Source: Candidatus Poseidoniaceae archaeon
GTDB lineage: Archaea > Thermoplasmatota > Poseidoniia > Poseidoniales > Poseidoniaceae
Assembly (NCBI GenBank): GCA_965659685.1
Contig: CBFHXB010000002.1
Span: 71,903-135,902 of the forward strand
Direction: 5' to 3'
Length of the DNA stretch: 64,000 bases
The position numbers were made by a program, and so were the translations under genes. This document shows positions 27,596-47,074 of the stretch, piece after piece. Numbering within the stretch: the stretch's first letter is position 1; every line of letters starts with the position of its first letter. The notes beneath the pieces were generated by a model. It saw only the letters and a list, made by a program, of their open reading frames with translations, ran no database searches and was not told where the DNA came from.

Positions 27596-30500
27596 TCATG
27601 CGATGCGCTCGAAGGCGCCGTCGTCGCGGAGCTTCCATCGCCCTGTGCCCTCGCCTTCGTAGTACGTACCTTCCGTGGTGTACTCGTAGTCGCCTCCTCC
27701 GGGGAGTTCGGTGTGATCGCCGACCACTGCTCCCGCATCCAACAGCGATGCAGGTTCGTGAACGTGTTCGGTGACCGGGGTGAGCGCGGCCAAGGCAGCT
27801 TCTGCGTTCGCCAAATCCACGGTCGCAGAGGCCGGCTTTGTTGGTGGTGCACGGGGGCCACCGGCCACACGTCGGTCAGCACCTGGGGGTCCCTTGGGCT
27901 TCGGCTTGGATGGGCCACCCGATGGGCCAGGAAGGGCTGCTTCAAGGTCGTCTTCGGTGTGACCTCGCCGCCTCAAGAGGACCACGGCGAGGGCGAGCAC
28001 GGCCAATCCACCGCCGCCGACCACCGCTGCTCCCATGCCGCCACCTGCGTTTTGGCCTCGGTAGGTCCAGAGGTTGTCGTCTTCGTCCAATTCGCTGACC
28101 TCGTCGTTGGCGTCAACGGTTACGCGCAAGGTCCACTCGCCCTTTGGGACGTTGAAGTTGCCACGGATCAATTCTGACTCATCGGCACCGAGGCCGCTGA
28201 TTTCGCGCCGGACGACCACGGCCTCCTCCCCGTCGCTTTCGAGCGTGATTTCAACCACGAAGGGTCGGTCAATGGCTTCCGACCGGGCGATGACGGGCGC
28301 GGCGACAAGCACATTCGCTCCTTCTGAATCAACATCGCCGTTCAGGGTCACGTCTCCCAGTTCCAAATCAGGGCCTTCGTCGGTTAACGTGGCCACGAAC
28401 CATGGGTCGCTGGCCGTCAGGTCCGACGCACCCACGAGCGGGCGCCCCGCATCGTCCCGGCCGTTGGCCCAACAGGACAGGCTCGCTTGCGGGTCGAGGT
28501 CCGCCGGGTCCCCGACGTTGGAGAAATTGAACACCGCTGTGAAAAGCGTGAGGTCCTCGAAGATGCCCGTAGGTGGCACGGATTGTGTCACTTCGGGCCA
28601 AGACCGTTCGGTCGAGGTCACTTGGCAGGTGACGTTGATCGGCCCGTTCCATCCCGTGTCCTCCTCGACGTTGACGCCGACGGTGACCTCGTCGAGGTGG
28701 TAACGGGACCACGAGGCTTCTGCGCTCTTGGCCACCAAGAATGGGGGGGTGGCGTCAACGTCCATCGGTGACAACACGATTTGGTGGAGCATGACCGTGT
28801 CCTGGGGGTCCCAGACTTCAATCCGGGCGAGCATCAAGCGTCCTCCCGCGGTCGGGGCAGGGATGCCGGTGTCGAGCACACCGTCTTGGATGAGGACCGT
28901 ACTGCCCCCGTCCCAACGCACAGCGCCGACGTTGCCAAACCATCGGATTCGGAGCCCTCCTTCATACGGCACGCCGCTGGTGCTGTGGTTGACGGTGGCG
29001 CTCAAGTTCAGGTGCTCTCCGACGGCAAGGACGCTGTCTGCGTCGATCGGCCCTTGGGTGGCGCCTTCCAAATCTGAGAGGTTCACGCCATCGAAGGTCA
29101 GCTCCCTGGCGAAGGTCCACGCCCCGGCAAGCTCGGTGGCGTTCGTGCCGTCGATGTCTTTGGCGACGATTCGGACCGCTCCTTCGATGAGTGAACCGGG
29201 CACCAAGGCCCATTCTGGGGCAAAGGCCAGGTCTACCGTCATCACGTCGTTGGACACCGAAGCAGCGCACGCCACCACGGCCGTTCGCCCGTCCAAGTTC
29301 TGACACTGTTCGCTGATGACGTCCCAACGGACCCCGAGGTTGACGTCCCCACCGAGTTCAATCCGGAGTTCTTGAACGTCCTCCAGACCGTTGCCGTCGG
29401 TCAAGGACACCTGCCATTGAAGGGGCCGGCCGGGCTCGAGGTGTTGTAACGTACCGTCGCTTGGGTTGATGCTCAGAACGTCGACGGTACGCGGGATCCT
29501 GGTGGTCCAATTCAGGTGGCCGGATTCAGCCGCCACGTTCGCCACAGGGAGTCCTGCAAGGTCGCTTCCCAGGACCAACACGCGAACGGCTTGATGGTCA
29601 TCGTTGGCGCTGTCGTCAACGGTGAAGTTGGCGGTCCAGACCGTGCCTGTGTTGGACCACGTCGCGGGCACCTGGACGTATTCCCCGAGGCTTGCGAGCC
29701 CGTCGATTTGGCCACCGTTTTGGCCGTCGTCTCTCGCTTCGACCCAGACGCGGAAATCGACGTCAGCGGGATCGAATCCTCCGACTTCTGCGAAGCTGAG
29801 GATGACGTTTCGTGCTGCGTTTTGATTCGCATAGGCCGCTTGATTCGGGCTGCTGCCGAGCAGGCTTGGGGCTTGGGCATCGAGGACAAAGGCGGTGCCG
29901 TCGTTTTCGAAGAGGAGGGTGGCGTTGGCTTCCGTACGAAGTTCGATGCGGAGGTCAGCAGGCCCGGAGGCATCCGAAGGAAGCACCATCGTCAGTGGGG
30001 CCAGGCTCGCGAGGCTGAGGTCGGTCCACGCGGTGGACATGTTGAACCACGTTGAGGCAGGCACGAGTTGACCTGCGGCAAGGTCCTCCACGCTCAGGTG
30101 CATGCGTGCTTGGAAGGCGCCGTCAGCCGGTCCGTCGTTTCGACTCGGGAAAGACGCTGAGAGGTCCACGGTCAACACACGGTCTGCGGCCACGACGACG
30201 GACGAAGTCGCCATCAGGTCCCGTCCATCGGCGGTGATGGCATCGAGGGTGACCTCGATGTCATCGGTCCACGTCAGCGTCGGGTTGTCCGGTGCAGCGG
30301 CGAAGACCAAGGAACCGTCATCGGCCTTGATTTCGAGGTGCATGTCCATTTGATTGAGGTTGACCACGCCCTGGTCCAGGTGAAGGTTCCACGCGAGTTC
30401 GGGTGGCGTTTGTTGGACGAGGTGAACGCTGCTGTTTGCGGTGTTGACGACCCGCAGGGCATCCATCGGGCTTGTGAGGGTCCATGTTCCACCGTTTTCC

Positions 30501-32224
30501 TCTGCCACGATCCGCTGGGTGCGTCCAAAGCCGGCGTCGAGGACCAGTTCCGCGCTGTCCCATTCGGTGTTGACGTCGACCAAGGTGGTCACGTTCAGCG
30601 GTTGACCGTAACTTTGCAGCGACGTGCGATCCAGGGCCGTGAACACGGTTTCCTCCATGCCCCAAGCAACGGCATCGAGGTCCGGCAAGGTCCATGCTTC
30701 ACCCTTTGTTGTGCTCAGCACGACACGGCACTGCATCCAGGGGTGCAAGTCGAGGAATTCTTCCACAGACCGTTCACTGCCGGAAACGCTTGGTTCCGGA
30801 ATGCTATGGTTGCCGATGGGGTGGTTGTAGCTGAAATTGCCGATCATCGGTTGCCAATCGATGCCGTTGAGCAACAGCGCATCCGGGGCGGTCCGGTACT
30901 GCAAGCCGAGGGAGGTTCCCGCAGGCGTGCTGCCGTCGAGGCGAATCCAGCGGAACATGGCATCGCCATGGGCGACGCTTCGGAGGTCGATTGGGGGTGA
31001 CGTCAACGTCCCTGTGTGCTCGGCGGGGCTGACGTAACGGTTGGACGTGGAGCGGAGTTGCAACCAATTCCAGGACGGATTCCCGGCATCGCCTCCGATG
31101 ACATAGGTGGCGTTGTTGTACTGCGTCCAGGCCATGCTGTGAACCGCGATGAGCAAGTTCCCCATGTTGCGCCACTCATCGGTGTCCGGTAACCAACCGT
31201 AGGTCCGGCGTTGTGCTCCCGTGCTCGAAGCGCCTCCAAACAGCACGATTTCGTCGTGGATGACGGTGGCCCCTGCCCCTGAAATGGCCACGCCCAAATC
31301 GGTGTGATTGGACCACGTTCCATTGCTCATGTGCATGCGTTCGGTCGTGTTGGTCAAGTCCCAACTGGCGGTGGGTGGTCCACCACCTGACGATGTCGCC
31401 GTGGTCTTGTAGCCACCCATGACGTAGAGGTTGCCGCGGTAATGGGCGGCTGCAGGCAGGACACGTGGTGTCGTGAGGTTCCCTTGCGCGGTCCAGGTGT
31501 CGTTGTCGATGTCGTAACTGGAACTGGTGTTCATCGCCATCACGTTCCCCGTCCGGTTCACACCACCGACCACGTACATGACGCCGTTGTGATGCGCATA
31601 GCCGGCTTTTCCAACGGCCCTGTCGCCGGGCATTGCGGTTCCAAGGCTCCAGGTGTCCGTCGTGAGGTTGTAGCGTTGCACCAAGCCTGAGGTAAACGAA
31701 GGGACCGAGGATTGGCTGTCTTCCATCGGAAGATCGCCCGCGAGCACCAAGGTGTCCCCCCAGCGGGCGCATCCTGCGAAGGATTGTGTGTTCGGCAGAG
31801 GATTGGAGGCCACGGTCCACGTGCCGTTGGTGACGTCGTAGATCTCGATCATGCTGGTCTCTTCCTCGTCGTTCCATTGGCTGGACGGATCGATGATGCC
31901 ACCGACCAACCACAATTCGTTCCGTTCTGGGATGGGGAACAAGCAAGCCGCCATGCGTGGAAACTGAGGTGTTCCTGCTGGCCCGGACCAGGCCACGGAG
32001 GGTCGGTCGATGACCACCTCGTTCCCGTCGCTGTCCCAACTGGTGCCGCTGAGGTTCCACCCAGTGCCGTTGAAATCAGCTTGCATGGCGCTTGCGGGCA
32101 TGGTGAAGGGGGCGGGCGCCTCCAAGGCCGTTTCAACGCCTCCCGAGGTCGGCATCACCATCGCCCATGGCATCGTGAGGAAGAGACCGAGCACAACCAA
32201 GGCTTGGAGGGTGGTCTTCGACAT
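27596..32224 (-). CDS. Giant Kelch-repeat surface protein with TM anchor and about 150-aa cytoplasmic tail (1542 aa)
   Basis: Signal-like MSKTTLQALVVLGLFLTMPWAMV. The N-terminal Kelch/galactose-oxidase-type propeller repeats include LWLVGG, IEIYDVTNGTWT and MYVVGG. A CARDB-like module lies near the C-terminus (... VDANDEVSELDEDDN). The TM helix is GGGGLAVLALAVVLL followed by RRRGH. Confidence 0.85.
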   Translation of the reverse strand: MSKTTLQALVVLGLFLTMPWAMVMPTSGGVETALEAPAPFTMPASAMQADFNGTGWNLSGTSWDSDGNEVVIDRPSVAWSGPAGTPQFPRMAACLFPIPERNELWLVGGIIDPSSQWNDEEETSMIEIYDVTNGTWTVASNPLPNTQSFAGCARWGDTLVLAGDLPMEDSQSSVPSFTSGLVQRYNLTTDTWSLGTAMPGDRAVGKAGYAHHNGVMYVVGGVNRTGNVMAMNTSSSYDIDNDTWTAQGNLTTPRVLPAAAHYRGNLYVMGGYKTTATSSGGGPPTASWDLTNTTERMHMSNGTWSNHTDLGVAISGAGATVIHDEIVLFGGASSTGAQRRTYGWLPDTDEWRNMGNLLIAVHSMAWTQYNNATYVIGGDAGNPSWNWLQLRSTSNRYVSPAEHTGTLTSPPIDLRSVAHGDAMFRWIRLDGSTPAGTSLGLQYRTAPDALLLNGIDWQPMIGNFSYNHPIGNHSIPEPSVSGSERSVEEFLDLHPWMQCRVVLSTTKGEAWTLPDLDAVAWGMEETVFTALDRTSLQSYGQPLNVTTLVDVNTEWDSAELVLDAGFGRTQRIVAEENGGTWTLTSPMDALRVVNTANSSVHLVQQTPPELAWNLHLDQGVVNLNQMDMHLEIKADDGSLVFAAAPDNPTLTWTDDIEVTLDAITADGRDLMATSSVVVAADRVLTVDLSASFPSRNDGPADGAFQARMHLSVEDLAAGQLVPASTWFNMSTAWTDLSLASLAPLTMVLPSDASGPADLRIELRTEANATLLFENDGTAFVLDAQAPSLLGSSPNQAAYANQNAARNVILSFAEVGGFDPADVDFRVWVEARDDGQNGGQIDGLASLGEYVQVPATWSNTGTVWTANFTVDDSANDDHQAVRVLVLGSDLAGLPVANVAAESGHLNWTTRIPRTVDVLSINPSDGTLQHLEPGRPLQWQVSLTDGNGLEDVQELRIELGGDVNLGVRWDVISEQCQNLDGRTAVVACAASVSNDVMTVDLAFAPEWALVPGSLIEGAVRIVAKDIDGTNATELAGAWTFARELTFDGVNLSDLEGATQGPIDADSVLAVGEHLNLSATVNHSTSGVPYEGGLRIRWFGNVGAVRWDGGSTVLIQDGVLDTGIPAPTAGGRLMLARIEVWDPQDTVMLHQIVLSPMDVDATPPFLVAKSAEASWSRYHLDEVTVGVNVEEDTGWNGPINVTCQVTSTERSWPEVTQSVPPTGIFEDLTLFTAVFNFSNVGDPADLDPQASLSCWANGRDDAGRPLVGASDLTASDPWFVATLTDEGPDLELGDVTLNGDVDSEGANVLVAAPVIARSEAIDRPFVVEITLESDGEEAVVVRREISGLGADESELIRGNFNVPKGEWTLRVTVDANDEVSELDEDDNLWTYRGQNAGGGMGAAVVGGGGLAVLALAVVLLRRRGHTEDDLEAALPGPSGGPSKPKPKGPPGADRRVAGGPRAPPTKPASATVDLANAEAALAALTPVTEHVHEPASLLDAGAVVGDHTELPGGGDYEYTTEGTYYEGEGTGRWKLRDDGAFERIA

Positions 32225-33860: not shown

Positions 33861-35282
33861 ATGTTCACAACGACGCGATTCAACGCATGGGACCTTCCCG
33901 ACACCGTCCAAGCCCCCATCGAAGGCCATGGGAGGGAGTTTGCCACCGAAGTTCAACGCGACACCATTCCTCGTGCTCGCCTTGGGCGTGACGTGATTGG
34001 GCAAGCCCGAACCGGGTCCGGAAAAACCGCGGCATTTGGCCTTCCGATGATCGAGCGTGCCACACCCGGTGCCGGTCTCCAAGCCTTGGTCCTCGCCCCC
34101 ACCCGGGAACTTGCGGTGCAGGTCGCCGAAGAGCTCGATTCCCTTCAGGGCAAAACGGGGCTTCGCATGCAAACCGTGTACGGTGGTACGGACATCGAAA
34201 AGCAAGCCAAGCAACTCGACGCTGGCGTTGACGTCATCGTCGGCACACCGGGCCGTGTCATGGACATGTCCGAACGTGGGCACATCGACTTGACCAAGCC
34301 GGGGATGTTCATCCTCGACGAAGCAGACCGCATGCTCGACATGGGTTTCTTCCCCGACATCCTTTGGGTGTTGGAGCGGATGACCGCCCGTGAGCAAACC
34401 CTGCTCTTCTCGGCCACCTTCCCTCAAGAGATCGTCAACGCCGCTTCCGAGTTCATGCGCGACCCTGAATTCGTGCAGGCCAACGAAGACGAAATCGATC
34501 TGCCGGACGTGCGCATGCTGCTCGTCCACGTGGGTCGTTCCAACAAACTCTGGGCCACGGCCCGCGTGTTGGCCCACCTCGAAGAGGACGGTCAAGCCAT
34601 CATCTTCGCTAACACGAAGCGCATGGTTGACCTTCTTGTGACCCGGCTCGCCAAGGCCAAATTCGACGTCGAAGGCCTCCACGGCGACCTCTCGCAAAAC
34701 CAGCGTGAGCGCATCCTTGGTCGCTTCCGAGATGGCGACGTTCGCATCATCGTCGCGACCGACGTCGCTGCACGTGGCATTGACGTGGACACCGTGACGC
34801 GCGTGATCAACTACGACGTGCCCAACGACATGGACGCCTTCATTCACCGCATTGGACGCACGGGTCGCATCGGTCGATCCGGAGAGGCATGGACCTTGGT
34901 GGACCGTACCTCCGGGCAACAGATGCAAAACATCGTGGCCACGTACGACCTTCCCGTCGAAGACGCGGACGCTCCGGACCTTCCCGAAGGCATGGAGCGC
35001 GACCCTGTTCAATTTCGAGAGGACCTTTCCGACGCCGCCGACCCCTTCGGCTTCGTCACCCTTCGGGTCAGCATCCCCTCCGCAGAAGGACTGTCCAAGG
35101 CCGCCCTCACCGATTGGCTCGTGGCCACGTTGTCGTGTGACCCGCTGGCCGTCGGAAGCATCGTCCAAGCTGAGGCCCACCTCGACCTTGGCATGCACAG
35201 CAGCGTTGCGGCCAAGGCCATGAAGGCGCTCAGCAAGGAAGGCGTGGCGGGTTTGACCCGAACGGCTGAACTGGTGCTCTGA
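33861..35282 (+). CDS. DEAD-box ATP-dependent RNA helicase with DbpA-like C-terminal domain
   Basis: Motifs TGSGKTAAFGLP, PTRELA, TPGR, DEAD, SAT and HRIGRTGR are present. GGAGG lies 9 nt upstream of the ATG. Confidence 0.9.
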   Translation: MFTTTRFNAWDLPDTVQAPIEGHGREFATEVQRDTIPRARLGRDVIGQARTGSGKTAAFGLPMIERATPGAGLQALVLAPTRELAVQVAEELDSLQGKTGLRMQTVYGGTDIEKQAKQLDAGVDVIVGTPGRVMDMSERGHIDLTKPGMFILDEADRMLDMGFFPDILWVLERMTAREQTLLFSATFPQEIVNAASEFMRDPEFVQANEDEIDLPDVRMLLVHVGRSNKLWATARVLAHLEEDGQAIIFANTKRMVDLLVTRLAKAKFDVEGLHGDLSQNQRERILGRFRDGDVRIIVATDVAARGIDVDTVTRVINYDVPNDMDAFIHRIGRTGRIGRSGEAWTLVDRTSGQQMQNIVATYDLPVEDADAPDLPEGMERDPVQFREDLSDAADPFGFVTLRVSIPSAEGLSKAALTDWLVATLSCDPLAVGSIVQAEAHLDLGMHSSVAAKAMKALSKEGVAGLTRTAELVL

Positions 35283-35285
35283 GGT

Positions 35286-36281
35286 TCATTCCTCTTCACG
35301 TACGGCCTCACGCAAGGCCTGACGTTCGTCCTCATCGAGCATGCTTGGCCAGCGTCCGTCGGCGAGCGGTCGCTCGAAGATCAACGCACTTACCGCGAAA
35401 CTGAGCAAGCCGAGGCTGGCCACCGACCACGCGCCGTCAATGGCATCGTTCCAGGTGTTTTCTGCGTCTGCACAACGTTGGCTGATCAGTTCGCTGAAGG
35501 CACACATTTCCGCGGTCGCACGTGCCTCAAGGGCGACCGGATCGTTGCGGACCATGTAGGTCGCCGTCAAGAAGAGGATCAAGGCCAACGCGACGCCCAT
35601 CACGGGTTGCTTCCATGCAGGGCGATGCTCGGACCACGTCCAGGCCTTGCGGGGCGTGATGCGCCATCGGTCGCTGCCGGCCATGCTGCGGTCCTTCACC
35701 CGGCGAGGTCCCCCCACCCACGTGAACCATGCCAACCACAAGCCGATGAGGACCACAAGGAAGCCCCATTCGTACACGTTGCGGTGAAAGGCCCACATGT
35801 CGTTCAGGCACGCCGGATCGTTGGGTGCTTCCAAGCATCCACCAAGTGCGATGGGATAGAACGCGACCAAACGGGTGAGGTTGAGGATGAAAACCAACGC
35901 ACATCCGACGGCCACGGCGCGAAGCCGATCCCGCTGAGGCACGTCGTCGGTGATGAGGATGAGGGTGGAGAGGAAAATCATCTCGTGCACACCCGCGCAT
36001 TCGTCTGAGACGTAGAGGCCGACGCTGTCGAAAGCACCAGGGAAACTGCTGTGATGGAAATCGATGCGCGTCGTCCAACCGTTGTGTTGGCTCAGGCTGA
36101 CCGCGTCCGCGCCCCAAATCCACTCCGTGATGCCGTGCCACAACCACGCCTCCACCACCTGCAAGGGTGCCAGGGTGTCCGAAGGCTCGGTCAGGAACCA
36201 GTAGAACGCCTCGACAAGAAGCAAAGCGAGCGGATACTTGCCATACCGCAGGCCAAGCGCTGCCACCTCGGACCAGGACAT
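35286..36281 (-). CDS. Exosortase/archaeosortase-family membrane protein (putative)
   Basis: A polytopic protein with the family's Cys/Arg/His triad in the expected order and context: YVSDECAGVHEM, FILNLTRLV (NxxR) and WAFHRNVYEWGF. The ATG at 36281 was chosen because the longer ORF runs antisense through the TusA-like gene. Confidence 0.55.
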   Translation of the reverse strand: MSWSEVAALGLRYGKYPLALLLVEAFYWFLTEPSDTLAPLQVVEAWLWHGITEWIWGADAVSLSQHNGWTTRIDFHHSSFPGAFDSVGLYVSDECAGVHEMIFLSTLILITDDVPQRDRLRAVAVGCALVFILNLTRLVAFYPIALGGCLEAPNDPACLNDMWAFHRNVYEWGFLVVLIGLWLAWFTWVGGPRRVKDRSMAGSDRWRITPRKAWTWSEHRPAWKQPVMGVALALILFLTATYMVRNDPVALEARATAEMCAFSELISQRCADAENTWNDAIDGAWSVASLGLLSFAVSALIFERPLADGRWPSMLDEDERQALREAVREEE

Positions 36282-36386: not shown

Positions 36387-36638
36387 ATGGAAGGCGGGGT
36401 GCAAGCGCTCGCCCCCAGCCACCGTCTGGACGTCAGAGGTTACCGGTGCCCGATCCCGGTGGGCGAGACCCGTCAGGCCTTGGCTGACTTGGAGCCGGGC
36501 AACGTTTTGGAAGTCAGGTTCGACGACCCTGAGGCGTTGGAAGACCTTCCTCCAATGCTGGCTCGACACGGCCACCGCATGCTTTCGGTGGAAGAGGTTG
36601 CAGGTGACTGGCGCATGTGCATCGAGGTGGTCAAGTGA
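36387..36638 (+). CDS. TusA/SirA-like sulfur-carrier protein
   Basis: LDVRGYRCPIPVGETRQALADLEPGNVLEVRFDDPEALEDLPPM carries the CPxP motif and the TusA-fold pattern. Confidence 0.7.
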   Translation: MEGGVQALAPSHRLDVRGYRCPIPVGETRQALADLEPGNVLEVRFDDPEALEDLPPMLARHGHRMLSVEEVAGDWRMCIEVVK

Positions 36639-37237
36639 GCACCGACGACGTCCCAAGCGTGGCCACCTTGCCCACGCCGTACGGTGCGTTTCGCATCGAG
36701 GTGGTCAAGGACGAAGGCGGATTGGAACACGTCGCCCTTTCGATGGGCGATTTGAGCGGTCCCGACCCGGTGCTGGTGCGGCTCCATTCAGAATGTTTGA
36801 CCGGCGATGCTTTTGGTTCGCTGCGTTGCGACTGTGGCCCACAACTCAACGCCGCCCTCGCGGCGGTGGCCCAACGAGGATGGGGCTGCGTGTTGTACCT
36901 CCGCCAGGAAGGTCGAGGCATCGGGCTCCACGCCAAAATTCAGGCCTACCATCTGCAAGACCAAGGTGCAGACACCCTTGATGCGAACCTGATGCTTGGG
37001 CACCCGGCCGACGGACGGGATTACACCATGGCCGCGAAGATGCTGACTTCCCTCGGCGTCGGTCAGGTTTCGTTGCTGACCAACAACCCCGACAAGGTCG
37101 AACAACTGCGTTCCTATGGCATTGATGTGGTCGAACGGATCCCCCTCGTCGCTGGCGTTGGCGAGGACAACAGGGACTACCTCCGTACCAAGGCAGAGCG
37201 CATGGGTCACGAACTTGAGGGCGACGATCTCGCCTGA
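36617..37237 (+). CDS. ribA: GTP cyclohydrolase II
   Basis: LVRLHSECLTGDAFGSLRCDCGPQL, YLRQEGRGIGL and LLTNNP are present. Start is either the GTG at 36617 or the GTG at 36635, which overlaps the TusA-like stop as GTGA. Confidence 0.85.
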   Translation: MHRGGQVSTDDVPSVATLPTPYGAFRIEVVKDEGGLEHVALSMGDLSGPDPVLVRLHSECLTGDAFGSLRCDCGPQLNAALAAVAQRGWGCVLYLRQEGRGIGLHAKIQAYHLQDQGADTLDANLMLGHPADGRDYTMAAKMLTSLGVGQVSLLTNNPDKVEQLRSYGIDVVERIPLVAGVGEDNRDYLRTKAERMGHELEGDDLA

Positions 37238-37328: not shown

Positions 37329-37814
37329 ATGGACATTGAGACCGCAGCAAACATTGGCGAAGCCGTGAGCGGCATCGCCATTTTGTTCACCCTGCTGTTC
37401 AGCCTGCGGCAGGTCAAGTTCTGGAACGAGAACCGTCGCTATGAGATCGGTCGTGACCTGGCGGCTCACCTCAACAATCCGATGATCCACCGTGGTTTTG
37501 CCGTCACCACGAACAAACTTCACGAGGAATTGAGCCTTGAGGAATTGGTGGGGCTGACCCGTGAAGAAAAGGACGCCATGAACGCCACGATGATTGGCAT
37601 GAACAACATCGGTCTTCTCGCCAAGCACGGTCACCTTTCGCTGGATTTGGTCGAAGCTTTTTGCGGCTATTACGTTCGGATCTTTGGGCCACGATGGCGC
37701 CGTGCCGTTGAGGTTCATGCCCAAGCCATGCAGCAAGTTGAATCGGTCAGCACCGTATGGAATGGGCTGTACTGGTTGATGGACACCCTCGAAGGTGACC
37801 GTGACGAACCCTGA
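37329..37814 (+). CDS. Hypothetical N-terminally anchored protein (161 aa)
   Basis: One N-terminal TM helix (AVSGIAILFTLLFSL) precedes a helical soluble domain. GC looks somewhat lower than the neighbours by eye. No family is confidently recognised. Confidence 0.55.
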   Translation: MDIETAANIGEAVSGIAILFTLLFSLRQVKFWNENRRYEIGRDLAAHLNNPMIHRGFAVTTNKLHEELSLEELVGLTREEKDAMNATMIGMNNIGLLAKHGHLSLDLVEAFCGYYVRIFGPRWRRAVEVHAQAMQQVESVSTVWNGLYWLMDTLEGDRDEP

Positions 37815-37885
37815 CACGCTGAATGAGCGGCCCCCCACGGCTCGTGCGTGGTGAAGGCTAAACCTCGCGTGCTGGACCTGCGGGC

Positions 37886-38515
37886 ATGGAGGTGGAGCTC
37901 GTCCTCGCGCTGGCCGCGGCCGGCACGATGCTGGGCGTCGTGGAGGGCCTGAAGCCCGGTCCTCTGATGACCATGGTCGTCCGCGAAACGCTCTCCGGTG
38001 GACTGAAGGCGGGCATGTGGACGGCCGCAGCCCCGATCTTCACCGACGGGCCGCTCATCCTCCTCAGCGTTCTGGTCGCCGCCTCGGTGGCCAACAGCCC
38101 GTACCTGCTGCTCGCCATCACGGTGGCGGGGGCGCTTTTCCTGGCCAAGATGGGCATCGATTGCTTCACCCTTGATCCGCCGGACTTCAATGCTGAGCCC
38201 GGCGCTCCTTCAGGCTCGCTGCTTCGTGGCGTCATCACCAATTTGCTGAACCCGAACGCCTACGTGTTTTGGTTCCTGATCGGTGGGCCTCTGATGGCCT
38301 CGGTGGTGCAGGAGGAATGGCTGGCACCGGTGGCCTACGCCCTGTCTTTCCTGCTGACGCTGATGCTGACCAAGGCCGTCGTCGCCTATGCGGTGCACAA
38401 GGCGAGCAACGGCATCTCCGAGACCGTCTACAAGCGCCTGCTTGCCGGATGCGGCGTGGTGATGCTCGGCTTCTCGGCCTTCTACGTCCGTGCAGCCTGG
38501 CAACTCCTCAACTGA
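37886..38515 (+). CDS. LysE/RhtB-family amino-acid exporter
   Basis: About six TM helices with the N-terminal GLKPGPLMTMVV motif typical of LysE translocators. Confidence 0.8.
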   Translation: MEVELVLALAAAGTMLGVVEGLKPGPLMTMVVRETLSGGLKAGMWTAAAPIFTDGPLILLSVLVAASVANSPYLLLAITVAGALFLAKMGIDCFTLDPPDFNAEPGAPSGSLLRGVITNLLNPNAYVFWFLIGGPLMASVVQEEWLAPVAYALSFLLTLMLTKAVVAYAVHKASNGISETVYKRLLAGCGVVMLGFSAFYVRAAWQLLN

Positions 38516-38639
38516 AGCAGTTCCATCACCTCAAACTTCCCGGAATGTGCGTGATCGCGCCGGGCCAACGAGGTGACCAGCAAAAATCGATTCACCTCGT
38601 GGCGAAGCGCGAGCACGCTAGCAGCTGAGAGAAGCAGAG

Positions 38640-38712
38640 TGCTCGCGCCGGGATTTGAACCCGGGTCAAAGGAATGAGAATCCTTTATGATGGGCCACTA
38701 CACCACGCAAGC
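38640..38712 (-). tRNA. tRNA-Glu (anticodon CUC), no encoded CCA
   Basis: Reverse complement: GCTTGCGTGGTGTAGTGGCCCATCATAAAGGATTCTCATTCCTTTGACCCGGGTTCAAATCCCGGCGCGAGCA. The anticodon loop is TTCTCAT. Confidence 0.9.
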
Positions 38713-38738
38713 AGGCATTTTCGCCGAACGTCCTCCCG

Positions 38739-38744
38739 TATTTA
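38739..38744 (-). promoter_or_regulatory. TATA box (TAAATA) for tRNA-Glu
   Basis: The minus strand reads GCGCTAAATACGGGAGG and ends 26 nt upstream of tRNA position 1. It shares TAAATACGGG with the tRNA-Lys promoter. Confidence 0.5.
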
Positions 38745-38874
38745 GCGCTAACCGACGGGTCGAAAGTGAACGCCGTACGTTGAACTGAAATCGATGCAGT
38801 GTCGTGGTCTTCACTTCACTTTCAGCGACCTCTCCCAATCGCCGCCTCATATGCGACCGGCGTGAGCGGTCATC

Positions 38875-39123
38875 ATGGCCCACGCCCCCATCCCCCCGAC
38901 CTTCGCGTCCATGCACACCCTGCATGCCCCCGCCCAACGCTCGCCGTGGACGGACGATCACCACAGCCCCCTTGCACACGCTTCTGGCCGGCTCCCCGTT
39001 CGAAGCCAGGACGCCGATTGGCGCCCCCTTCACCTCATGGAGCGGCCCGTCCGACCCCTGTCGCGCAGCCTCCAAGGTTTGCAAGCCAGGGCCAACGCCC
39101 TTCCGGTTCGGGGGGTGGCTTGA
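38875..39123 (+). CDS. Possible 82-aa hypothetical protein
   Basis: Its third-position GC is the strongest of the frames in an otherwise unassigned 410-bp stretch. Its stop overlaps the next ATG (TGATG). No motifs were found and it is Pro/His/Arg-rich, so confidence is low. Confidence 0.25.
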   Translation: MAHAPIPPTFASMHTLHAPAQRSPWTDDHHSPLAHASGRLPVRSQDADWRPLHLMERPVRPLSRSLQGLQARANALPVRGVA

Positions 39124-39362
39124 TGGGTCGCACGCAACGCCTTCGTGAAGCCATTCACTGCTACCTCGGCGAGCACGGTGAAGCCAACACGACGATGATT
39201 CTCGATCACATCAACAGCCGCTTCCGCTGGGGTGCCACCATGAACCAAATCGGGAACGTGCTCGCACGTGACCGGCGCTTTGAGAAGGTCGGTTTCGATG
39301 ATCGAAGCGCAACCGGTGGCTTCCGCATTCGCGTCTGCATTTGGTCCATCGCCGCCTCCTGA
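39123..39362 (+). CDS. Hypothetical 79-aa protein (possibly winged-helix-like)
   Basis: MGRTQRLREAIHCYLGEHGEANTTMILDHINSRFRWGATMNQIGNVLARDRRFEKVGF... The upstream part of the track ORF (from 38799) is Pro-rich filler. Confidence 0.5.
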   Translation: MGRTQRLREAIHCYLGEHGEANTTMILDHINSRFRWGATMNQIGNVLARDRRFEKVGFDDRSATGGFRIRVCIWSIAAS

Positions 39363-39401
39363 GGGGCAAAGGTCCTTGGCGCGTTCGCCGGGCTTCGGTG
39401 C

Positions 39402-40286
39402 ATGGCAGGCCGTGCTGGAGCGTTGCTCGAGCTGACCAGGCCCACCAACTTGGTCCTCGGTGCGGCCACGGTTCCACTGGGGGCCACCATGGTCTTGGGA
39501 GAGGCCTGGACCTCTGAGTCGATCACGGTCACGGCCCTCTACGCCACCAGCGTGGTGGCCTTCATGGCCGCAGGGAACGCGATGAATGACCTTCGCGACG
39601 TCGAGGTGGACCGTGTGGTTCACCCGCACCGGCCCCTGCCCAGCGGTCGCGTTTCACGGCCGGTGGCCGCACGCTTCACGGCAGGATTGTGGCTGCTCTC
39701 GTTGCTGACCTTGGTCCTCGGTACCGCTGGGTTGGCCACAGGAATGCCGGACGCTCCGATGCTGGCGCCCGTCGTCATCTGGGTGCTCGCGGCCGTGCTG
39801 ATGATGACCTACGACCACGGCCCGGCCCTGAAGGACCGAGGCCTGAGCGGCAACCTCGCCATCTCCGTGCTGGTGGGTGCTGTCGTGCTGTTCGGGGCCG
39901 CTGGCGTTGGGTCTTGGGCCCATCCTGTCGCCTTGGCGGCCGCTGCGGTGGCGGCCTTGGTCAACCTCGCACGGGAGATCGTCAAGGACGTCCATGATCT
40001 GGAGGGCGACGAAGGGCACCGCTCCACCTTGCCGATGGTCATTGGGGCCGAGCGTGCTCGGATGGTCGCCTACGTCTGTGCCTTGCTCGGACTCGTTGTG
40101 CTCTACCTTCCGTACTGGCGTGGCCCGTTGGCCTTCTCCCAAATCTTGCTTCAGGCCCCGGCCATCTTGCTCATCATCACGACGAACGGTCCGCTTTACC
40201 AGGGCCAAGATGCCGTGGTGGCCAGCAGGTTCCGGCTTGGGATGTTGGCCGGTCTCTTCGGATTCCTGGGCAGCGTGCTGCTTTGA
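39402..40286 (+). CDS. UbiA-family prenyltransferase, digeranylgeranylglyceryl-phosphate synthase-like
   Basis: NAMNDLRDVEVDRVVHPHRPLPSG carries NxxxDxxxD, and there is a second Asp-rich motif, KDVHDLEGD. The protein has about eight TM helices. Confidence 0.8.
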   Translation: MAGRAGALLELTRPTNLVLGAATVPLGATMVLGEAWTSESITVTALYATSVVAFMAAGNAMNDLRDVEVDRVVHPHRPLPSGRVSRPVAARFTAGLWLLSLLTLVLGTAGLATGMPDAPMLAPVVIWVLAAVLMMTYDHGPALKDRGLSGNLAISVLVGAVVLFGAAGVGSWAHPVALAAAAVAALVNLAREIVKDVHDLEGDEGHRSTLPMVIGAERARMVAYVCALLGLVVLYLPYWRGPLAFSQILLQAPAILLIITTNGPLYQGQDAVVASRFRLGMLAGLFGFLGSVLL

Positions 40287-41276
40287 TCAGGATTCGAGTC
40301 CCATGAACTCGCCCATGGCTTCCCAAGCAACGGGATTGACCATGCGTGCCATGATCGACATTTGTGCCCACATTCGGTTTTCGGCTTGGTCGAAGACGAT
40401 GGATTGGTCATGGTCCATGACCCCATCCGTGACCTCCTCGCCGCGGTGGGCCGGGAGGCAGTGCATGAAGCGCCACGCTTCGTCCGCGTGAGCCACAAGG
40501 TCCTCGTTGACCTGGAATCCATCGAAATCGTTCATCTTCCCATCGAGGTGTTCTTCGCCCATCGACACGAACACGTCGGTGTAGATGACGTGGGAGCCGC
40601 TGACGGCTTCCACCGGGTCGTTCGTTGCCGTGATGGTTGCTCCTGTTTCCTCAGCGATGGCATGGGCCCGGGCCACCACGTCCTCGTCCGGTTCGTACCC
40701 CTTTGGTACGGCGTAGGCCACGTCGTGGCCAAGCATGACCGAAGCCAGCATCAGGTCATGCAGCACGTTGTTGCCGTCGCCGACCCAACTGACGCGGAGT
40801 TTCTCGTCGGTGTCGAAGGCTTCCATGACGGTCATGAGGTCCGCAGCGGCTTGGCAGGGATGATGCTTGTCGGAAAGCGCGTTGATCACCGGCACGTCAG
40901 CGCTCCGGGCCAGTTCAGTCACGTCCGCGTGGGCGTAGCAGCGGTAGGTGATGGCGCCCAAGAATCGGGAGAGCACTTTGGCGGTGTCCGCCACGGTTTC
41001 GCTTGTACCAAGTTGGATGTCGTTCTTCAAGAGGGTGAGTGGATTTCCACCCAACCGGTCGATGCCGACTTCAAAGGAGACGCGTGTTCGGGTGCTGGGC
41101 TTCTCGTAGATGCAGCCTACCGTCAGCGTGTCCAAGGGCATGAAGTTCAGGACGACTTCGTCGCCGGTCTTCCACAAACGCTTGAACTCGATGGCCCACC
41201 GCAGCACGGCTTCAAGGTCTTCTCCAAGGTCATCGATGGCGAGCAGAGCATCGGTCATGTCCCGCTTGGGCCTCAT
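40287..41276 (-). CDS. argF: Ornithine carbamoyltransferase
   Basis: Motifs STRTRVSFE, SDKHHPCQAAADL, DVFVSMGEE and HCLPAHRGEEV are present. Confidence 0.85.
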   Translation of the reverse strand: MRPKRDMTDALLAIDDLGEDLEAVLRWAIEFKRLWKTGDEVVLNFMPLDTLTVGCIYEKPSTRTRVSFEVGIDRLGGNPLTLLKNDIQLGTSETVADTAKVLSRFLGAITYRCYAHADVTELARSADVPVINALSDKHHPCQAAADLMTVMEAFDTDEKLRVSWVGDGNNVLHDLMLASVMLGHDVAYAVPKGYEPDEDVVARAHAIAEETGATITATNDPVEAVSGSHVIYTDVFVSMGEEHLDGKMNDFDGFQVNEDLVAHADEAWRFMHCLPAHRGEEVTDGVMDHDQSIVFDQAENRMWAQMSIMARMVNPVAWEAMGEFMGLES

Positions 41277-41295: not shown

Positions 41296-42120
41296 TCAGT
41301 TACGCTCGTGCTCGATGTCGGGTGCGAAGCCGTCGCGGGCGTCGCTCATGCCGCCGTACATGGCCTGCACAAAGGTGAGGATGTCGGCAAGACCTTCTTC
41401 AAGTTCCGACGACAATGGGGTCAGGCCAGGAGCTTGCGAAAAGGACTGCATCAAGCGGAGCTGGTTGATGGCGAATTCCGTGCGCTGACCGCCGGCTTCG
41501 TCAAACAAGGCTTGCTCGAGGATCTCAAGACGCTCGGACCACTCGAGGACGCGTTCCAGCTCTTCCTCATCAAGCAGGTCGCTCTTGGAGAGGAAGTTCT
41601 TGGTCGGAAGGCCCAATCGGAATTCAACGATCGACGACAGCAGCATTTGACTGACGAAACCGCTCGGGGACCGTGACAACATCGGGTCGAAGAGGTAGAT
41701 GATGGCGGCTTGTTCGCGCCCCAGCACGTCGATGAGGTGGCTGCTGGCTTCACGGAAGGCAAAGAGTTCGACTTGCCCGGGGGTGTCGACAATCATCAGT
41801 TCGCCCGAGAGCGTGTGCAGTTGCTCCGCAACGTCACCCGCTTGGGCAGCGAGGAGGTCGGCGGCCAAGATTTGGGCGCCGTTGGGTCCAAGGTCGTATT
41901 CGTCCATGACCTCGGTGAGGGAGATCATGTCACGGACGTCGAATTCGGCGTCGTAGTGCACCCGTTCGGCCCCTGGGTCGAGGTTGACGGCAAGAACTTC
42001 GGTTTCGAGGAACCGTGACCAGCGTTGGAACGCCGTCACCAGCGAGGATTTTCCGGCACCGGCAGTGCCCACCACGAAGACAACAGGGGGAGTGCTTGAG
42101 TCGCCGCCGGCCATGGTCAT
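41296..42120 (-). CDS. GPN-loop GTPase
   Basis: P-loop GTAGAGKSS, NLDPGAE and the eponymous GPNGA loop are present. Confidence 0.85.
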   Translation of the reverse strand: MTMAGGDSSTPPVVFVVGTAGAGKSSLVTAFQRWSRFLETEVLAVNLDPGAERVHYDAEFDVRDMISLTEVMDEYDLGPNGAQILAADLLAAQAGDVAEQLHTLSGELMIVDTPGQVELFAFREASSHLIDVLGREQAAIIYLFDPMLSRSPSGFVSQMLLSSIVEFRLGLPTKNFLSKSDLLDEEELERVLEWSERLEILEQALFDEAGGQRTEFAINQLRLMQSFSQAPGLTPLSSELEEGLADILTFVQAMYGGMSDARDGFAPDIEHERN

Positions 42121-42248
42121 CGGCGGTTATGGCCCTTCTTCAACGCGACGGAGCCAGAACGCCACCTTCCGCGCTGAAGTGGGGAACGGTTATGTGCTCA
42201 TCAGCGATGCAAACGTTGCCGCCTTACGGCTCTTCAGGAGGAAGAAGC

Positions 42249-45200
42249 ATGACCGACGAAAACATTCCACCCGCACCCCCCGGTCTCCCACCTGCTCCTC
42301 CCGCCCCTCCCGGCCTTCCACCGGCGCCCCCAATGCCACCCGGCATGGGCGCTCCCCCTGCCCCTCCCGGCATGGAAGCTCCACCGGCTCCTCCCGGCCT
42401 CCCCCCTGCTCCACCGATGCCTCCTGGCATGGAAGCACCTCCCGCGCCTCCCGGCATGGATCCGCTCGCTGCTCCTCCCGCGCCTCCCGGCATGGATCCG
42501 CTCGCTGCTCCTCCCGCGCCTCCCGGCATGGATCCGCTCTCCGCTCCTCCCGCCCCACCCGGCATGGGCGCGCTCGCCGCTCCTCCCGCGCCTCCCGGCA
42601 TGGACGCGCTCGCCGCTCCTCCCGCCCCTCCCGGCATGGACGCGCTTGCTGCTCCTCCCGCTCCTCCCGGCATGGACGCGCTTGCTGCTCCTCCCGCCCC
42701 TCCTGGCTTGGACCCGCTCATCTCCGATGGGCTGATGCCCCCTGCGCCTCCTGCGTTAGAGCCCTTGACGGAAGACGAGTTGGAATCCTTGGAAGAACCG
42801 TCCGAAGCACTTGCAACGGACCCCTTGGCCATGCCCGCGCCTCCCGCACCTCCTGGTCTCGAAGCACTTGCAGCGGACCCCTTGGCCATGCCCGCGCCTC
42901 CCGCACCTCCCGGTCTCGAAGCACCTGCCGAGGACCCCTTGGCCATGCCCGCGCCTCCCGCACCTCCCGGTCTCGAAGCGCCGGCCGAGGACCCCTTGGC
43001 CATGCCCGCACCTCCTGCCCCTCCCGGCATGGACGCGCTCGCAGCCCCACCCGCTCCGCCAGGCCTTGACCCGCTCGCCGCGGATGCTTTGCTCGCACCT
43101 CCGGCGCCACCCGCGCTCGACATGCCTGCCGAGGACCCGTTGGCCATGCCTGCCCCACCCGCCCCTGCTGGGCTTGATCCGCTGGCAGCGGATGCACTTC
43201 TCGCGCCCCCCGCTCCTCCCGCTGATCCTCTGGCGGCGGATGCCTTGATGGCACCACCCGAGCCGCCTGCAGACCTCCCTGACCTGACCGCAGCCCTCCC
43301 TGTTGAGGGCGTACAGGGCGCAGGCGAGGACAAGGTGGACGCAACCGAAGAAGGCCTGTCTGGCGTGGTTGCCGGTGCAGTCTTGCGGTCCTCCGACGAA
43401 GTCGACAGCATTGCGGGCGACAAGCTCGAAGGAAGCATTCACGAAGTGGAAGACACCACCGTGGATGCGGACGGTCACGTGACCAAGCAGAAGGTCACGG
43501 GGACCCTTACGCTGTCGAACCCTTCCAAGGACGACCGTGTCTACGACGTGGACGCCGTCATGTCCGATTCGTCCTCGACGAACCTCAAGGGGAACGTGGT
43601 GAGCGTCGAAGAACTGGAGCCCGGTCAGGAGCATGCCGTGTCGTACACCGTGTCCGACCGCAACATGCTGATGATGGCAGAGCGCTTCGACACCAACCCG
43701 GCTCGGGACAAGGAGCGCTCGCTTTCCTTGGCCATGGGCGCTGAGAACACGATTTCCCTCGAATTGGAGGTCCGCAACGTTGCGTCCACCGGTTTGCACG
43801 ATGTCGTCGTGACCCGCCCGCTTCCTGACGGCATGAACGTCACCGAAGTGGAGCACGCCACCGTTGAGGACGGTACGCTCACGTGGGACGTCGGCCACCT
43901 TGACGTCGGTGCATCGAGCACCATCGTGGTGCGAGGAACCCTCGTCGCCACCGGCAAGGACCCCGTTTCCAGCGGTGCGGCCACCGCCACCTACCGTGCT
44001 GACGCCGCCCTGTCCACGATGAACTTCGAGGATTTGGACGCCTTCTGCCGCGGTTTCGCTTACATGCGATCCGTCGAAGGTGAACGCCCTGACACGTGGG
44101 AAGTCACCGCCGTGTTCGAGAACCGTTCCTCCTTTGCCGTGGACTTGGTCAAGCTTCAGGCTCGGCTCAAAGGCAGCGATGAGTTGCTGTTCGACTTCAG
44201 CGACGTGAACGAAGACGTCGCTCCCCATGGCGAGTGGCGGTCTGAATCGGTCAGCGTTGCCTCGGCCGAGAAGCCGGACCTGACGTGGGAACTCTCCTAC
44301 ACCGTGCTGCCGCGCACCAGCGCCACCACCGAGGGTACGCTCACAATGACGCCACGCGATTTGGCCATCGTTGACGCAACGGTGGAGAAGTCCTACAGCA
44401 AATCGAAGCTTCATTCCTACCGTGAGCAAACTGTTCAGGCAGAGATCCGCATCACCAACACCGGTTCGTCCGACATCAACCTGATGCGTCTCACCGACGA
44501 CATCCCTGGCGTGTTCCACGCCGTGGACAGCTCGACCCTGAAGATCAAGCAGGCCGGACAATCCCTGCCTCCCGAGCAATTCAAGGCCGATGTCAGCGAA
44601 GGCATCACCCTCGAAGGCGAACACCACAGCCCTGACGGCGCAGGTCACACCCTGACCTTGACCATCGGGCGCAAGGGTCCCATCGGCATGGCTCCCGGCG
44701 AAGTCGTGGTCGTGACCTACGACCTCGTGGCGCCCGACCCTTCGCCTCAGAACGAACGCGTGGACGCCCCAATCCGTGGCGAATTCAGTTGCGAGCGCTT
44801 TGGCCCAGTCTGTGAGCGTGACGTCGAGTCGGCTCCATCGGTCCGTGTTGTCCACAACCGCCGTGACTTTTCGGCGGGCAAGCAGGCCTTGAAGGTCGGA
44901 GGGCGTGGCCGTTACGAAGTGCTGATCCTCTTCGAGAACAACGGCGACACGCCCCTGGCTGACGTCCAGCTCAAGGACGTCATTCCGCCCGGCTACGAGA
45001 TGACGGACTGCGAAGTGCGTGCGAACAACTCGGCCCTCGAGAACGTTGAGACCAGCCAGGAGACGGACGCCACAGGCACCACCGTCATCTGGCATCTTCC
45101 AAGCGTCGGCAAGGCCGAGCGCATCGACGTGGCCTACATGATCAAGGGCGAAGGAGACATCGACACCGACCTCCTCAACACCTTCCACGGCGCCGTCTTT

Positions 45201-45629
45201 GGCGACGAAATCGAGGACGATGACGCAGAACCCGAAGCACCTGCAGAAGCCGAAGAGGCTTCCGAGGAAGTTGAGAGTGCACCTGCGGTGAAGTTCCGAG
45301 ACGACGTGCTCGACCGCGTCATGGACGCCCACGGCATCGACAGCGAGCACCGTGACGCCTTCATCGCCCACGCCGCCGCGTTCGACCACGACGGCAACAA
45401 CTACCTCAAGAAGCAGGAGTTGGAGGACGCCGCCACCGCATGGAACGAAGCACACGGTGATTCTTCCGAGGACGAGGGCATCGCAGAAGCCGAGGAAGAA
45501 GCGGAAGCATCCGAAAGCGACGACGCGGAGGTCGAATCGGCAGAGACCAAGTCTTGCCCGATCTGCATGAAGGACGTTGCAGCGGACGCCACCGAGTGCG
45601 ACTGCGGATTCAAGTTCGAGGAGAACTGA
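42249..45629 (+). CDS. Signal-less 1126-aa repeat protein with a poly-PPxPPG region, beta-sandwich (DUF11/CARDB-like) repeats, an EF-hand-like loop and a C-terminal zinc ribbon
   Basis: The ATG at 42249 is preceded by AGGAGG 8 nt upstream. The in-frame upstream extension overlaps the divergent GPN gene. There is no hydrophobic N-terminus or TM segment anywhere. DHDGNNYLKKQELEDA fits an EF-hand loop. The protein ends CPICMKDVAADATECDCGFKFEEN*. Confidence 0.85.
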   Translation: MTDENIPPAPPGLPPAPPAPPGLPPAPPMPPGMGAPPAPPGMEAPPAPPGLPPAPPMPPGMEAPPAPPGMDPLAAPPAPPGMDPLAAPPAPPGMDPLSAPPAPPGMGALAAPPAPPGMDALAAPPAPPGMDALAAPPAPPGMDALAAPPAPPGLDPLISDGLMPPAPPALEPLTEDELESLEEPSEALATDPLAMPAPPAPPGLEALAADPLAMPAPPAPPGLEAPAEDPLAMPAPPAPPGLEAPAEDPLAMPAPPAPPGMDALAAPPAPPGLDPLAADALLAPPAPPALDMPAEDPLAMPAPPAPAGLDPLAADALLAPPAPPADPLAADALMAPPEPPADLPDLTAALPVEGVQGAGEDKVDATEEGLSGVVAGAVLRSSDEVDSIAGDKLEGSIHEVEDTTVDADGHVTKQKVTGTLTLSNPSKDDRVYDVDAVMSDSSSTNLKGNVVSVEELEPGQEHAVSYTVSDRNMLMMAERFDTNPARDKERSLSLAMGAENTISLELEVRNVASTGLHDVVVTRPLPDGMNVTEVEHATVEDGTLTWDVGHLDVGASSTIVVRGTLVATGKDPVSSGAATATYRADAALSTMNFEDLDAFCRGFAYMRSVEGERPDTWEVTAVFENRSSFAVDLVKLQARLKGSDELLFDFSDVNEDVAPHGEWRSESVSVASAEKPDLTWELSYTVLPRTSATTEGTLTMTPRDLAIVDATVEKSYSKSKLHSYREQTVQAEIRITNTGSSDINLMRLTDDIPGVFHAVDSSTLKIKQAGQSLPPEQFKADVSEGITLEGEHHSPDGAGHTLTLTIGRKGPIGMAPGEVVVVTYDLVAPDPSPQNERVDAPIRGEFSCERFGPVCERDVESAPSVRVVHNRRDFSAGKQALKVGGRGRYEVLILFENNGDTPLADVQLKDVIPPGYEMTDCEVRANNSALENVETSQETDATGTTVIWHLPSVGKAERIDVAYMIKGEGDIDTDLLNTFHGAVFGDEIEDDDAEPEAPAEAEEASEEVESAPAVKFRDDVLDRVMDAHGIDSEHRDAFIAHAAAFDHDGNNYLKKQELEDAATAWNEAHGDSSEDEGIAEAEEEAEASESDDAEVESAETKSCPICMKDVAADATECDCGFKFEEN
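42264..43285 (+). repeat. In-frame tandem coding repeats (about 39-nt and about 57-nt periods) encoding some 24 PPxPP units
   Basis: Units such as APPAPPGMD(P/A)LA (13 aa) are repeated about 8 times with near-identical DNA. Units DPLAMPAPPAPPGLEA(L/P)A(A/E) (19 aa) are repeated about 4 times, with degenerate copies on both sides. Confidence 0.9.
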
Positions 45630-45630
45630 A

Positions 45631-46050
45631 TCAGAACGGAAGTTGCCACCGGGGCGCCAGCTCCGGGTCTTCGTCTTCGTCAACGATGAGGATGACCGGA
45701 CGGCGCATGCTCACGAGCAGTTCCTCCAGCGGTGTCCGTGTTGCCGGTGCCATGGTGCCCACGCGGAGATCCACTGCAAGCCAAGCTTCCGGGTACTGCC
45801 GCATCCAAGCCCCGAGTTCAGCCTCGATGGACTCAGGTGGCGCTCCAGGACGAACGCTTGGCAAATGACCCCAGCCCTGCGGGCAGCGTTGCTCCATCTC
45901 CGTCCAGAGGAAGACGCGTGGCGCGCTGGGCAGGCGTGCGAGTTGGGCTTCGGCCTCCTCCAAGGTGGCGCTGACCGGCTGTCCGGGCATCGGCATTGGG
46001 AGCGGGTGCGCCCAGCCCGGATTGACATCGAGTGGACTTCGGCGGCGCAT
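45631..46050 (-). CDS. Hypothetical 139-aa protein
   Basis: It is the most protein-like of three overlapping ORFs in this interval (... LEELLVSMRRPVILIVDEDEDPELAPRWQLPF*). Its stop lies 1 nt from the upstream convergent stop. No family recognised. Confidence 0.4.
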   Translation of the reverse strand: MRRRSPLDVNPGWAHPLPMPMPGQPVSATLEEAEAQLARLPSAPRVFLWTEMEQRCPQGWGHLPSVRPGAPPESIEAELGAWMRQYPEAWLAVDLRVGTMAPATRTPLEELLVSMRRPVILIVDEDEDPELAPRWQLPF

Positions 46051-47072: not shown

Positions 47073-47074
47073 CC

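Follow-up and report, generated by a model that had tools for sequence, protein, structure and literature searches.

ArtX, an archaeosortase-family membrane protein of Marine Group II archaea that lies outside the named subfamilies

Introduction

Many Euryarchaeota carry two or three archaeosortase paralogues, each of which is paired with a distinct motif (PMC6098224). In Haloferax volcanii, the PGF-CTERM-specific archaeosortase A (ArtA) requires Cys173, Arg214, and Arg253 (PMC9263693). Here, we describe an open reading frame (ORF) of archaeosortase type at 35286-36281 on the minus strand of a 64,000-nucleotide stretch of DNA, referred to as the window, from contig CBFHXB010000002.1 of assembly GCA_965659685.1. 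For convenience, the name ArtX was coined for this ORF in the present analysis. The host organism is a Marine Group II (MGII; Poseidoniales) archaeon whose own family is MGIIa, and its assembly has a length of 1.89 Mb, a GC content of 62%, and a completeness of 87%.

In the surface ocean, few archaea are as abundant as those of Marine Group II. None of them is in culture, and the use of particles and polymers is attributed to their large surface proteins. A literature search found no paper linking archaeosortases with Marine Group II or Poseidoniales. An original prediction, made from the letters of the window, had proposed both an archaeosortase-like gene and a new glycine-rich recognition motif at the ends of three giant surface proteins.

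A superfamily member without a named subfamily

The ORF was retained in a codon-usage gene call of the window. When its product was compared with NCBIfam by hmmscan, residues 90-188 matched the superfamily signature TIGR04178 with 32.1 bits, above the cut-off of 23, and a six-frame search of the genome gave 33.6 bits on the same model. This bears out the suggestion that the gene is archaeosortase-like. The original prediction had also proposed scoring the protein with exosortase and archaeosortase hidden Markov models (HMMs), and here the superfamily signature was passed while all of the named subfamily models failed. The subfamily models compared were ArtB, ArtC, ArtD, ArtE, ArtF, pacearchaeosortase, heimdallarchaeosortase, and XrtB, XrtG, XrtH, XrtW, XrtX, and XrtY, on which ArtX scored 11-17 bits against cut-offs of 80-425. 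The best was ArtB (17 bits, cut-off 150), with XrtX (16, cut-off 170) and XrtG (15, cut-off 103) close to it; pacearchaeosortase (14, cut-off 80) and the ArtA model TIGR04125 (13, cut-off 75) scored lower still.

Relatives of ArtX at 30-39% identity, together with remoter ones, likewise match the signature model only. At least 246 homologues are present in metagenome-assembled genomes of Poseidoniaceae or Marine Group II and, where a name is given, it is ‘exosortase/archaeosortase family protein’. The family is a narrow one, because only 21 clusters fall below 1e-30 among 1.84 billion representative proteins. No relative was found in the Protein Data Bank, either by sequence, where the matches were designed coiled coils, or by fold, where the best Foldseek E-value was 0.35. 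On these scores, ArtX is a genuine member of the exosortase/archaeosortase superfamily and belongs to an unnamed subfamily that is specific to Marine Group II. Pfam returned chance matches alone (PTR2, and VKOR with an E-value of 0.3), and the idea that the Cys pair might be VKOR-like was discarded.

Putative catalytic residues and modelled architecture

Three short motifs, DECAGVHEM, NLTR, and FHRNVYEWGF, occur in that order in the 331-residue translation. They include Cys95 (35997-35999), Arg137 (35871-35873), and His166 (35784-35786), which together with Asn134 lie in the signature region (residues 90-188; 35718-36014, minus strand). All four residues are invariant in alignments of 18, 14, and 37 sequences, down to 30% identity. 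In the same alignments Gly97, His99, and Glu100, which form a C-x-G-x-H-E pattern with the Cys, are also strictly invariant over the range of 30-100% identity. The Cys, Arg, and His landmarks that had been put forward as catalytic are thus correctly ordered, and the triad is conserved throughout each set of homologues, including the largest set of 37.

A structural model of ArtX was built with AlphaFold2 on the 37-sequence alignment and is confident, having a mean predicted local distance difference test (pLDDT) score of 88.8. Residues 61-90 are modelled as a three-stranded sheet, and long helices span residues 3-31, 38-56, 98-109, 116-139, 141-151, 156-188, 226-246, and 268-299; seven long helices were counted in this model when superfamily membership was assessed. 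The basic loops at residues 112-121 and 192-224 are inferred to be cytoplasmic by the positive-inside rule, in which case Cys95, Arg137, and His166 would face the outer side of the membrane.

Beyond the signature region, residues ~200-331 (35289-35684, minus strand) form a C-terminal extension, which was defined from the modelled secondary structure and from conservation, with its topology assigned by the positive-inside rule. It consists of a basic loop, a two-helix hairpin (226-246 and 268-299) whose connector carries Cys260 and Cys270, and a tail ending in EEE. The earlier description of an extension of about 130 amino acids with two transmembrane helices therefore holds, and this module is conserved across the family. 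The Cys260 and Cys270 pair is invariant across the family and probably forms a disulfide outside the membrane. A second invariant pair, Cys149 and Cys158, is found in the outer loop that precedes His166.

Several observations were made on the ends of these proteins. In genus g9 (L011:8663-9334 in genome G278, and also in G210), ArtX has ~223 amino acids and stops after the catalytic core (…KKIYSEE), and the two-helix extension is missing, which makes this a naturally truncated form. In genera g2/g4 (genomes G202, G114, G297, G265, G193, G050, G117, and G094), the match to ArtX contains one in-frame TAA, which may merely mean that the alignment overruns the real stop of a shorter protein. The EEE end is kept in homologues of ArtX down to 30% identity. 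Proteins ending exactly in EEE number 30 of the 1,351 predicted in the host genome, compared with 0.35 expected from composition, and there are 29 in G066, a complete genome that lacks ArtX; another example in the window, besides ArtX, is at 19909-21255 (minus strand).

Read from an ATG at 36281 to a stop at 35286-35288, ArtX has 331 amino acids. An alternative GTG start at 36311, with AGGTGG upstream, would give 341 amino acids by adding the ten residues VAATAKAEDD. A database protein that is 99% identical to ArtX is 341 amino acids long, and homologues keep an acidic ‘DD’ ahead of the Met, which agrees with the GTG start. Given the upstream AGGTGG, the length of the near-identical protein, and the conserved ‘DD’, the GTG at 36311 is probably the true start and the product a protein of 341 amino acids.

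A canonical archaeosortase in the same genome

The host genome encodes a second and stronger member of the superfamily on contig C9, which reaches 65 bits on the signature model and 107.5 bits on TIGR04125 (cut-off 75). Its homologues are named ‘archaeosortase A (PGF-CTERM-specific)’, and PGF-CTERM tails sit on other contigs of the genome. On the PGF_CTERM model (cut-off 24.5) the host tails scored 37 and 21.8 bits, with 11.4 bits for a third, and two PGF-like variants gave no match. With both a canonical ArtA and its PGF-CTERM tails encoded elsewhere in the host genome, ArtX is, on gene content, an added paralogue alongside a complete ArtA/PGF system.

With two such proteins in one genome, the PGF-CTERM-like substrates of ArtA could be divided between the two or used by both, ArtX acting for example on tail variants of the LPAPG, PSF, or PGG type. 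The host has only 3 strict PGF tails; a number of PGF-like variants, in which the helix is rich in Ala/Leu and the tail is RR, are also present, and several archaeosortase paralogues in one genome are a known arrangement (PMC6098224). However, the same variants (LPAMG, LPAPG, LPAVG, and VPGVG) occur in G066, which lacks ArtX, and this genome has 8 strict PGF tails against the 3 in the host. Neither the strict tails nor any class of variants tracks ArtX, and the paralogues described so far are each paired with a motif of their own (PMC6098224). A division of PGF-type substrates between the two proteins is therefore unlikely.

Proposed action of ArtX

We favour the reading that ArtX is an active Cys peptidase or transpeptidase of an unnamed, MGII-restricted archaeosortase subfamily, that it is a paralogue of canonical ArtA, and that its signal is not GGP or glycine-rich; we would give this a probability of roughly 60%. 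In the proposed arrangement, Cys95, Arg137, and His166 would lie at the outer ends of transmembrane helices, beside a small three-stranded extracytoplasmic sheet. The C-terminal hairpin would bear the probable outer disulfide Cys260-Cys270, with the acidic tail (...EEE) inside. By analogy with ArtA, the signal cut by ArtX would lie close to the membrane in one or a few secreted proteins, and ArtX might transfer the cut proteins to lipid. The set of clients would be small, and a family of 1,633-amino acid proteins with a member in the window would be the first candidate, backed by co-distribution alone.

Some findings weigh against this. When the host was compared with G066, no class of tail was found that is specific to ArtX-containing genomes. 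Differences near the active site also have to be considered. An alignment of MGII ArtA sequences contains an invariant His258-x-Tyr-x-x-Arg263, with the Arg five residues past the His; this Arg263 is probably the counterpart of Arg253 in H. volcanii ArtA. ArtX has no invariant Arg near His166 across its 37 sequences, in which the next invariant residues are F174, W182, and W185. Since the second critical Arg of ArtA appears to have no invariant counterpart in ArtX, the chemistry of the two may differ. Furthermore, the profile-profile alignment of ArtX with ArtA extends over 51 columns only and has low probability, and the region of the His and the second Arg is not confidently aligned.

Some of these points would fit a protein that is no longer a sorting peptidase and instead serves as a pseudo-enzyme or scaffold, or acts as an enzyme on some other substrate in the membrane. 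The tail scans of the host and G066 brought up no cognate signal, the second critical Arg has no evident counterpart, and the extra conserved module with its disulfide-type cysteines suggests an added or altered function. Such a role is nevertheless improbable, in that the strict invariance of Cys95, Arg137, His166, Gly97, His99, and Glu100 over 30-100% identity is what would be expected if the active site works.

The proposed glycine-rich sorting signal

The original prediction identified three giant proteins in the window as candidate substrates. These are a secreted protein of 1,633 amino acids (7672-12573, plus strand), which has a C-terminal helix and, as in ...GQGLFGGPAGGVGS-ILILVIVSLVGFVAY-RLSKERS, a basic tail of 7-9 amino acids; an 813-amino acid surface protein with CARDB domains (48777-51218, minus strand), recognized by its CARDB match and synteny, in which a C-terminal helix leads into APKRVRKVE as the conserved cytoplasmic end; and an 831-amino acid Ig/PKD-like surface protein (61496-63991, minus strand), with a C-terminal helix and the tail RHGGGRQ. 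The three C-termini are exactly as they were written, with a tripartite layout at the extreme end. The suggestion was that ArtX may recognize a new signal, made of a glycine-rich or GGP segment, a helix, and a basic tail, and that these giants would be its substrates. Besides the layout of the tails in the host genome, it could draw on a slightly higher frequency of glycine-rich juxtamembrane segments: at least 3 Gly among 15 juxtamembrane residues occur in 7 of the 26 host proteins that have a signal peptide and a C-terminal helix, and in 3 of 26 anchored secreted proteins in G066.

Random windows of the same 26 host proteins gave 4.2 +/- 1.7, and 53 of 500 samples reached 7, so that the enrichment in Gly is not significant. 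The motifs PGF, PEF, VPxxxP, PIP, IPTL, PEP, CGP, GGP, and GG were scanned by regular expression in the host and in G066. GGP ahead of a hydrophobic stretch within the last 36 residues was found in one protein of each genome, and GG followed by a hydrophobic tail in 14 host proteins compared with 12 in G066. Among the host tails, no motif common to unrelated proteins was found right before the helix. For the three giants and two further glycine-rich tails, the terminal 52-58 residues matched no NCBIfam C-terminal sorting model, including GlyGly-CTERM, at E <= 10.

Comparison of orthologues points in the same direction. GGP is absent from the orthologues of the giants, and the segments ahead of the helix vary among them. 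The 813-amino acid protein is present at full length in all 18 ArtX-less genomes tested from MGIIb, the sister family of MGIIa; its helix and cytoplasmic end (APAKIKKIE / GPGR(I/V)(R/K)K...) are unchanged with or without ArtX, and the segment before the helix is not conserved and has no GGP. For the 831-amino acid protein, orthologues with the helix and basic tail occur in the ArtX-less genomes G012, G054, and G018, and the GLGYGLGG segment before the helix is kept in the nearest genera only. Co-occurrence of motif and enzyme had been suggested as a check, and on this both families keep the same anchors in genomes without ArtX. Without a match to a curated model, a significant enrichment, or conservation in orthologues, the claim of a new recognition motif fails. 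The outcome is the one that the original prediction had named as contrary to it: plain transmembrane anchors, with no motif genome-wide. Recognition of the three giants through such a signal is highly improbable, and they look like proteins that end in ordinary type-I membrane anchors. They should not be annotated as sortase substrates.

In a separate observation on host tails, several unrelated type-I surface proteins have Arg or Arg-Arg and then 3-5 Gly right after the C-terminal helix (RRRGGGGGS, TRGGGGGDG, GRRGGGGEP, and RHGGGRQ). They are encoded at C20:33070-37779, C5:78740-81940, C8:89827-91689, and 61496-63991 in the window.

Distribution, loss, and a candidate client

ArtX was used as a query in 301 genomes of its class. 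It is present in 139 of 141 MGIIa genomes (both misses are 78-80% complete), and a third family contributes one genome that has it. Within MGIIb it is confined to genera g13, g14, g19, g21, g22, and g23; genera g15-g18 and g20 are without it, and have genomes of 1.3-1.6 Mb, many of which are >90% complete. Other orders of the class gave just weak matches, to other archaeosortases. ArtA-like genes were found in 38 of 39 genomes tested, including 17 of 18 that lack ArtX, with G121 as the single miss. A maximum-likelihood tree built from a conserved surface protein groups the 15 genomes without ArtX that were sampled into a single clade (support 100/100), sister to g19. On this tree, ArtX was therefore lost once, in the streamlined MGIIb clade.

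The 1,633-amino acid family is the sole one of the three giant families that co-distributes with ArtX. Among the 301 genomes, 169 have both ArtX and the giant, 4 have the giant only (all of them <=84% complete), ArtX never occurs on its own, and both are absent from 128; at the level of genera, 19 have both and 11 have neither. In MGIIa as in MGIIb, the two genes belong to one syntenic block, at a distance of ~18-54 kb from each other. G066 lacks the giant cleanly at the syntenic site where it would be expected, and the same is true of ArtX at its own site. The giant contains no Pfam domain. A juxtamembrane G[FLV][LF]G..[VI][ND]P is conserved in its orthologues and paralogues, with the host copy lacking the [ND]P. 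An HMM of the juxtamembrane segment and helix, when searched against the whole host proteome, matched only the giant and its paralogue. Most orthologues, and also the host's paralogue, have a cytoplasmic tail of 40-175 amino acids past the helix with conserved acidic or W-rich motifs. The gene for the archaeal RNase P RNA (12616-12913, plus strand; 232.5 bits) lies directly after that for the giant.

These observations raise the idea that ArtX is dedicated to this family and would cut at G[FLV][LF]G..[VI][ND]P, even with a long cytoplasmic tail after the helix. The co-distribution is perfect by genus and near-perfect by genome, the genes share a syntenic block, and the juxtamembrane motif is conserved. 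Furthermore, a long tail does not exclude processing, because the ArtA of H. volcanii is able to act on a tripartite signal that lies internally, away from the C-terminus (PMC9263693, PMC6098224). However, with all ArtX-less genera in one clade (100/100), the pattern amounts to one loss plus one gain, and a shared loss comes cheaply when 31% of host ORFs have no match in G066. Since the pattern reflects a single loss event, the co-distribution of ArtX and the giant is a weak lead. In addition, long tails with conserved motifs of their own suggest a permanent type-I anchor, and a motif that is limited to the giant and its paralogue, and incomplete in the host copy, may be plain homology. Dedication of ArtX to this family is thus unlikely. 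The fuller form of this idea, in which ArtX and the family of ~1,650-amino acid giants would be an enzyme-client pair of Marine Group II and an internal juxtamembrane cut would free the ectodomain for lipid anchoring or regulated shedding, has a slim chance of being correct; if true, the pair would represent a new signal class and the second natural case of internal archaeosortase processing.

Genomic neighbourhood

ArtX is flanked by conserved neighbours. A DEAD-box helicase gene (33861-35282, plus strand) is convergent with it, leaving a gap of 3 nucleotides between the stops, with no functional link implied. On the other side, a small TusA-like ORF and the gene for GTP cyclohydrolase II (RibA) are divergent from it (36387-37237, plus strand). 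Twelve loci drawn from both families share the order HEAT-repeat protein, DEAD-box helicase, ArtX in convergent orientation, and RibA. The 11 loci that reach far enough continue with a CARDB protein of ~800 amino acids, an orthologue of the 813-amino acid protein in the window, which is thus separated from ArtX by one gene. G066 retains this block intact except for ArtX, whose place between the helicase and the TusA-like gene is cleanly empty, and no remnant of it was detectable at this site. Adjacency means little here, because the whole region is syntenic housekeeping. With the CARDB protein also persisting unchanged in genomes without ArtX, the neighbourhood was rejected as a clue to the substrate.

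Some local features of this region were also recorded. Relative to the 11 other MGII loci, the block at 42015-51218 is inverted in this genus, and an insert of ~4 kb (37329-41276), with a LysE-like gene and a tRNA-Glu, separates RibA from the CARDB protein in the host. The TusA-like ORF (36387-36638, plus strand) overlaps the start of ribA, and its orthologue in G066 (1114955-1115401) has an extra N-terminal Cys-rich segment that resembles a zinc ribbon. A secreted Kelch and CARDB protein of 1,542 amino acids (27596-32224, minus strand), without a C-terminal helix, belongs to the ArtX synteny block of MGIIa and is missing from that of MGIIb.

Significance and comparison with known systems

ArtX is, as far as sequence comparison can place it, an orphan archaeosortase subfamily. 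If these archaea have a further archaeosortase beside ArtA, and one that carries a conserved additional module, part of the envelope-maturation machinery of Marine Group II has gone undescribed. The search for clients narrows to proteins that are absent from the streamlined MGIIb clade, with the 1,633-amino acid family first among them.

Three described systems provide points of comparison. The GlyGly-CTERM signal of the rhombosortase system in Gram-negative bacteria combines a Gly/Ser-rich motif, a hydrophobic helix, and a basic tail (PMC6219818), which resembles the layout that was proposed for the tails of the giants. However, its model is not matched by those tails and its enzyme is a rhomboid rather than a homologue of exosortases; the host genome encodes one generic rhomboid only.

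The named subfamilies ArtB (VPXXXP), ArtC (PEF), ArtD (PIP), ArtE, ArtF, pacearchaeosortase, heimdallarchaeosortase, XrtX, and XrtG have the signature domain in common with ArtX. Like ArtX, they are lineage-restricted paralogues, and each is expected to have its own C-terminal signal. Unlike them, ArtX falls below each of the cut-offs, and its host genome has no VPxxxP, PEF, PIP, or IPTL class of tail, the one VPxxxP match in it being a PSF/PGF-like tail.

The third system is ArtA, studied in H. volcanii. ArtX differs from it in its score (13 bits against the cut-off of 75), in the extra C-terminal two-helix module with its Cys pair, in a different N-terminal half that contains the three-stranded sheet at residues 61-90, and in having no associated signal of PGF type. 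Both are polytopic membrane proteins of one superfamily, with active residues predicted at the outer membrane face. BLASTP and profile-profile comparison align Cys95, Asn134, and Arg137 of ArtX with Cys191, Asn229, and Arg232 of the host's ArtA family. The spacing between Cys and Arg is 42 in ArtX and 41 in ArtA, and both have an invariant His ~26-29 residues past the Arg, which is His166 in ArtX and His258 in MGII ArtA.

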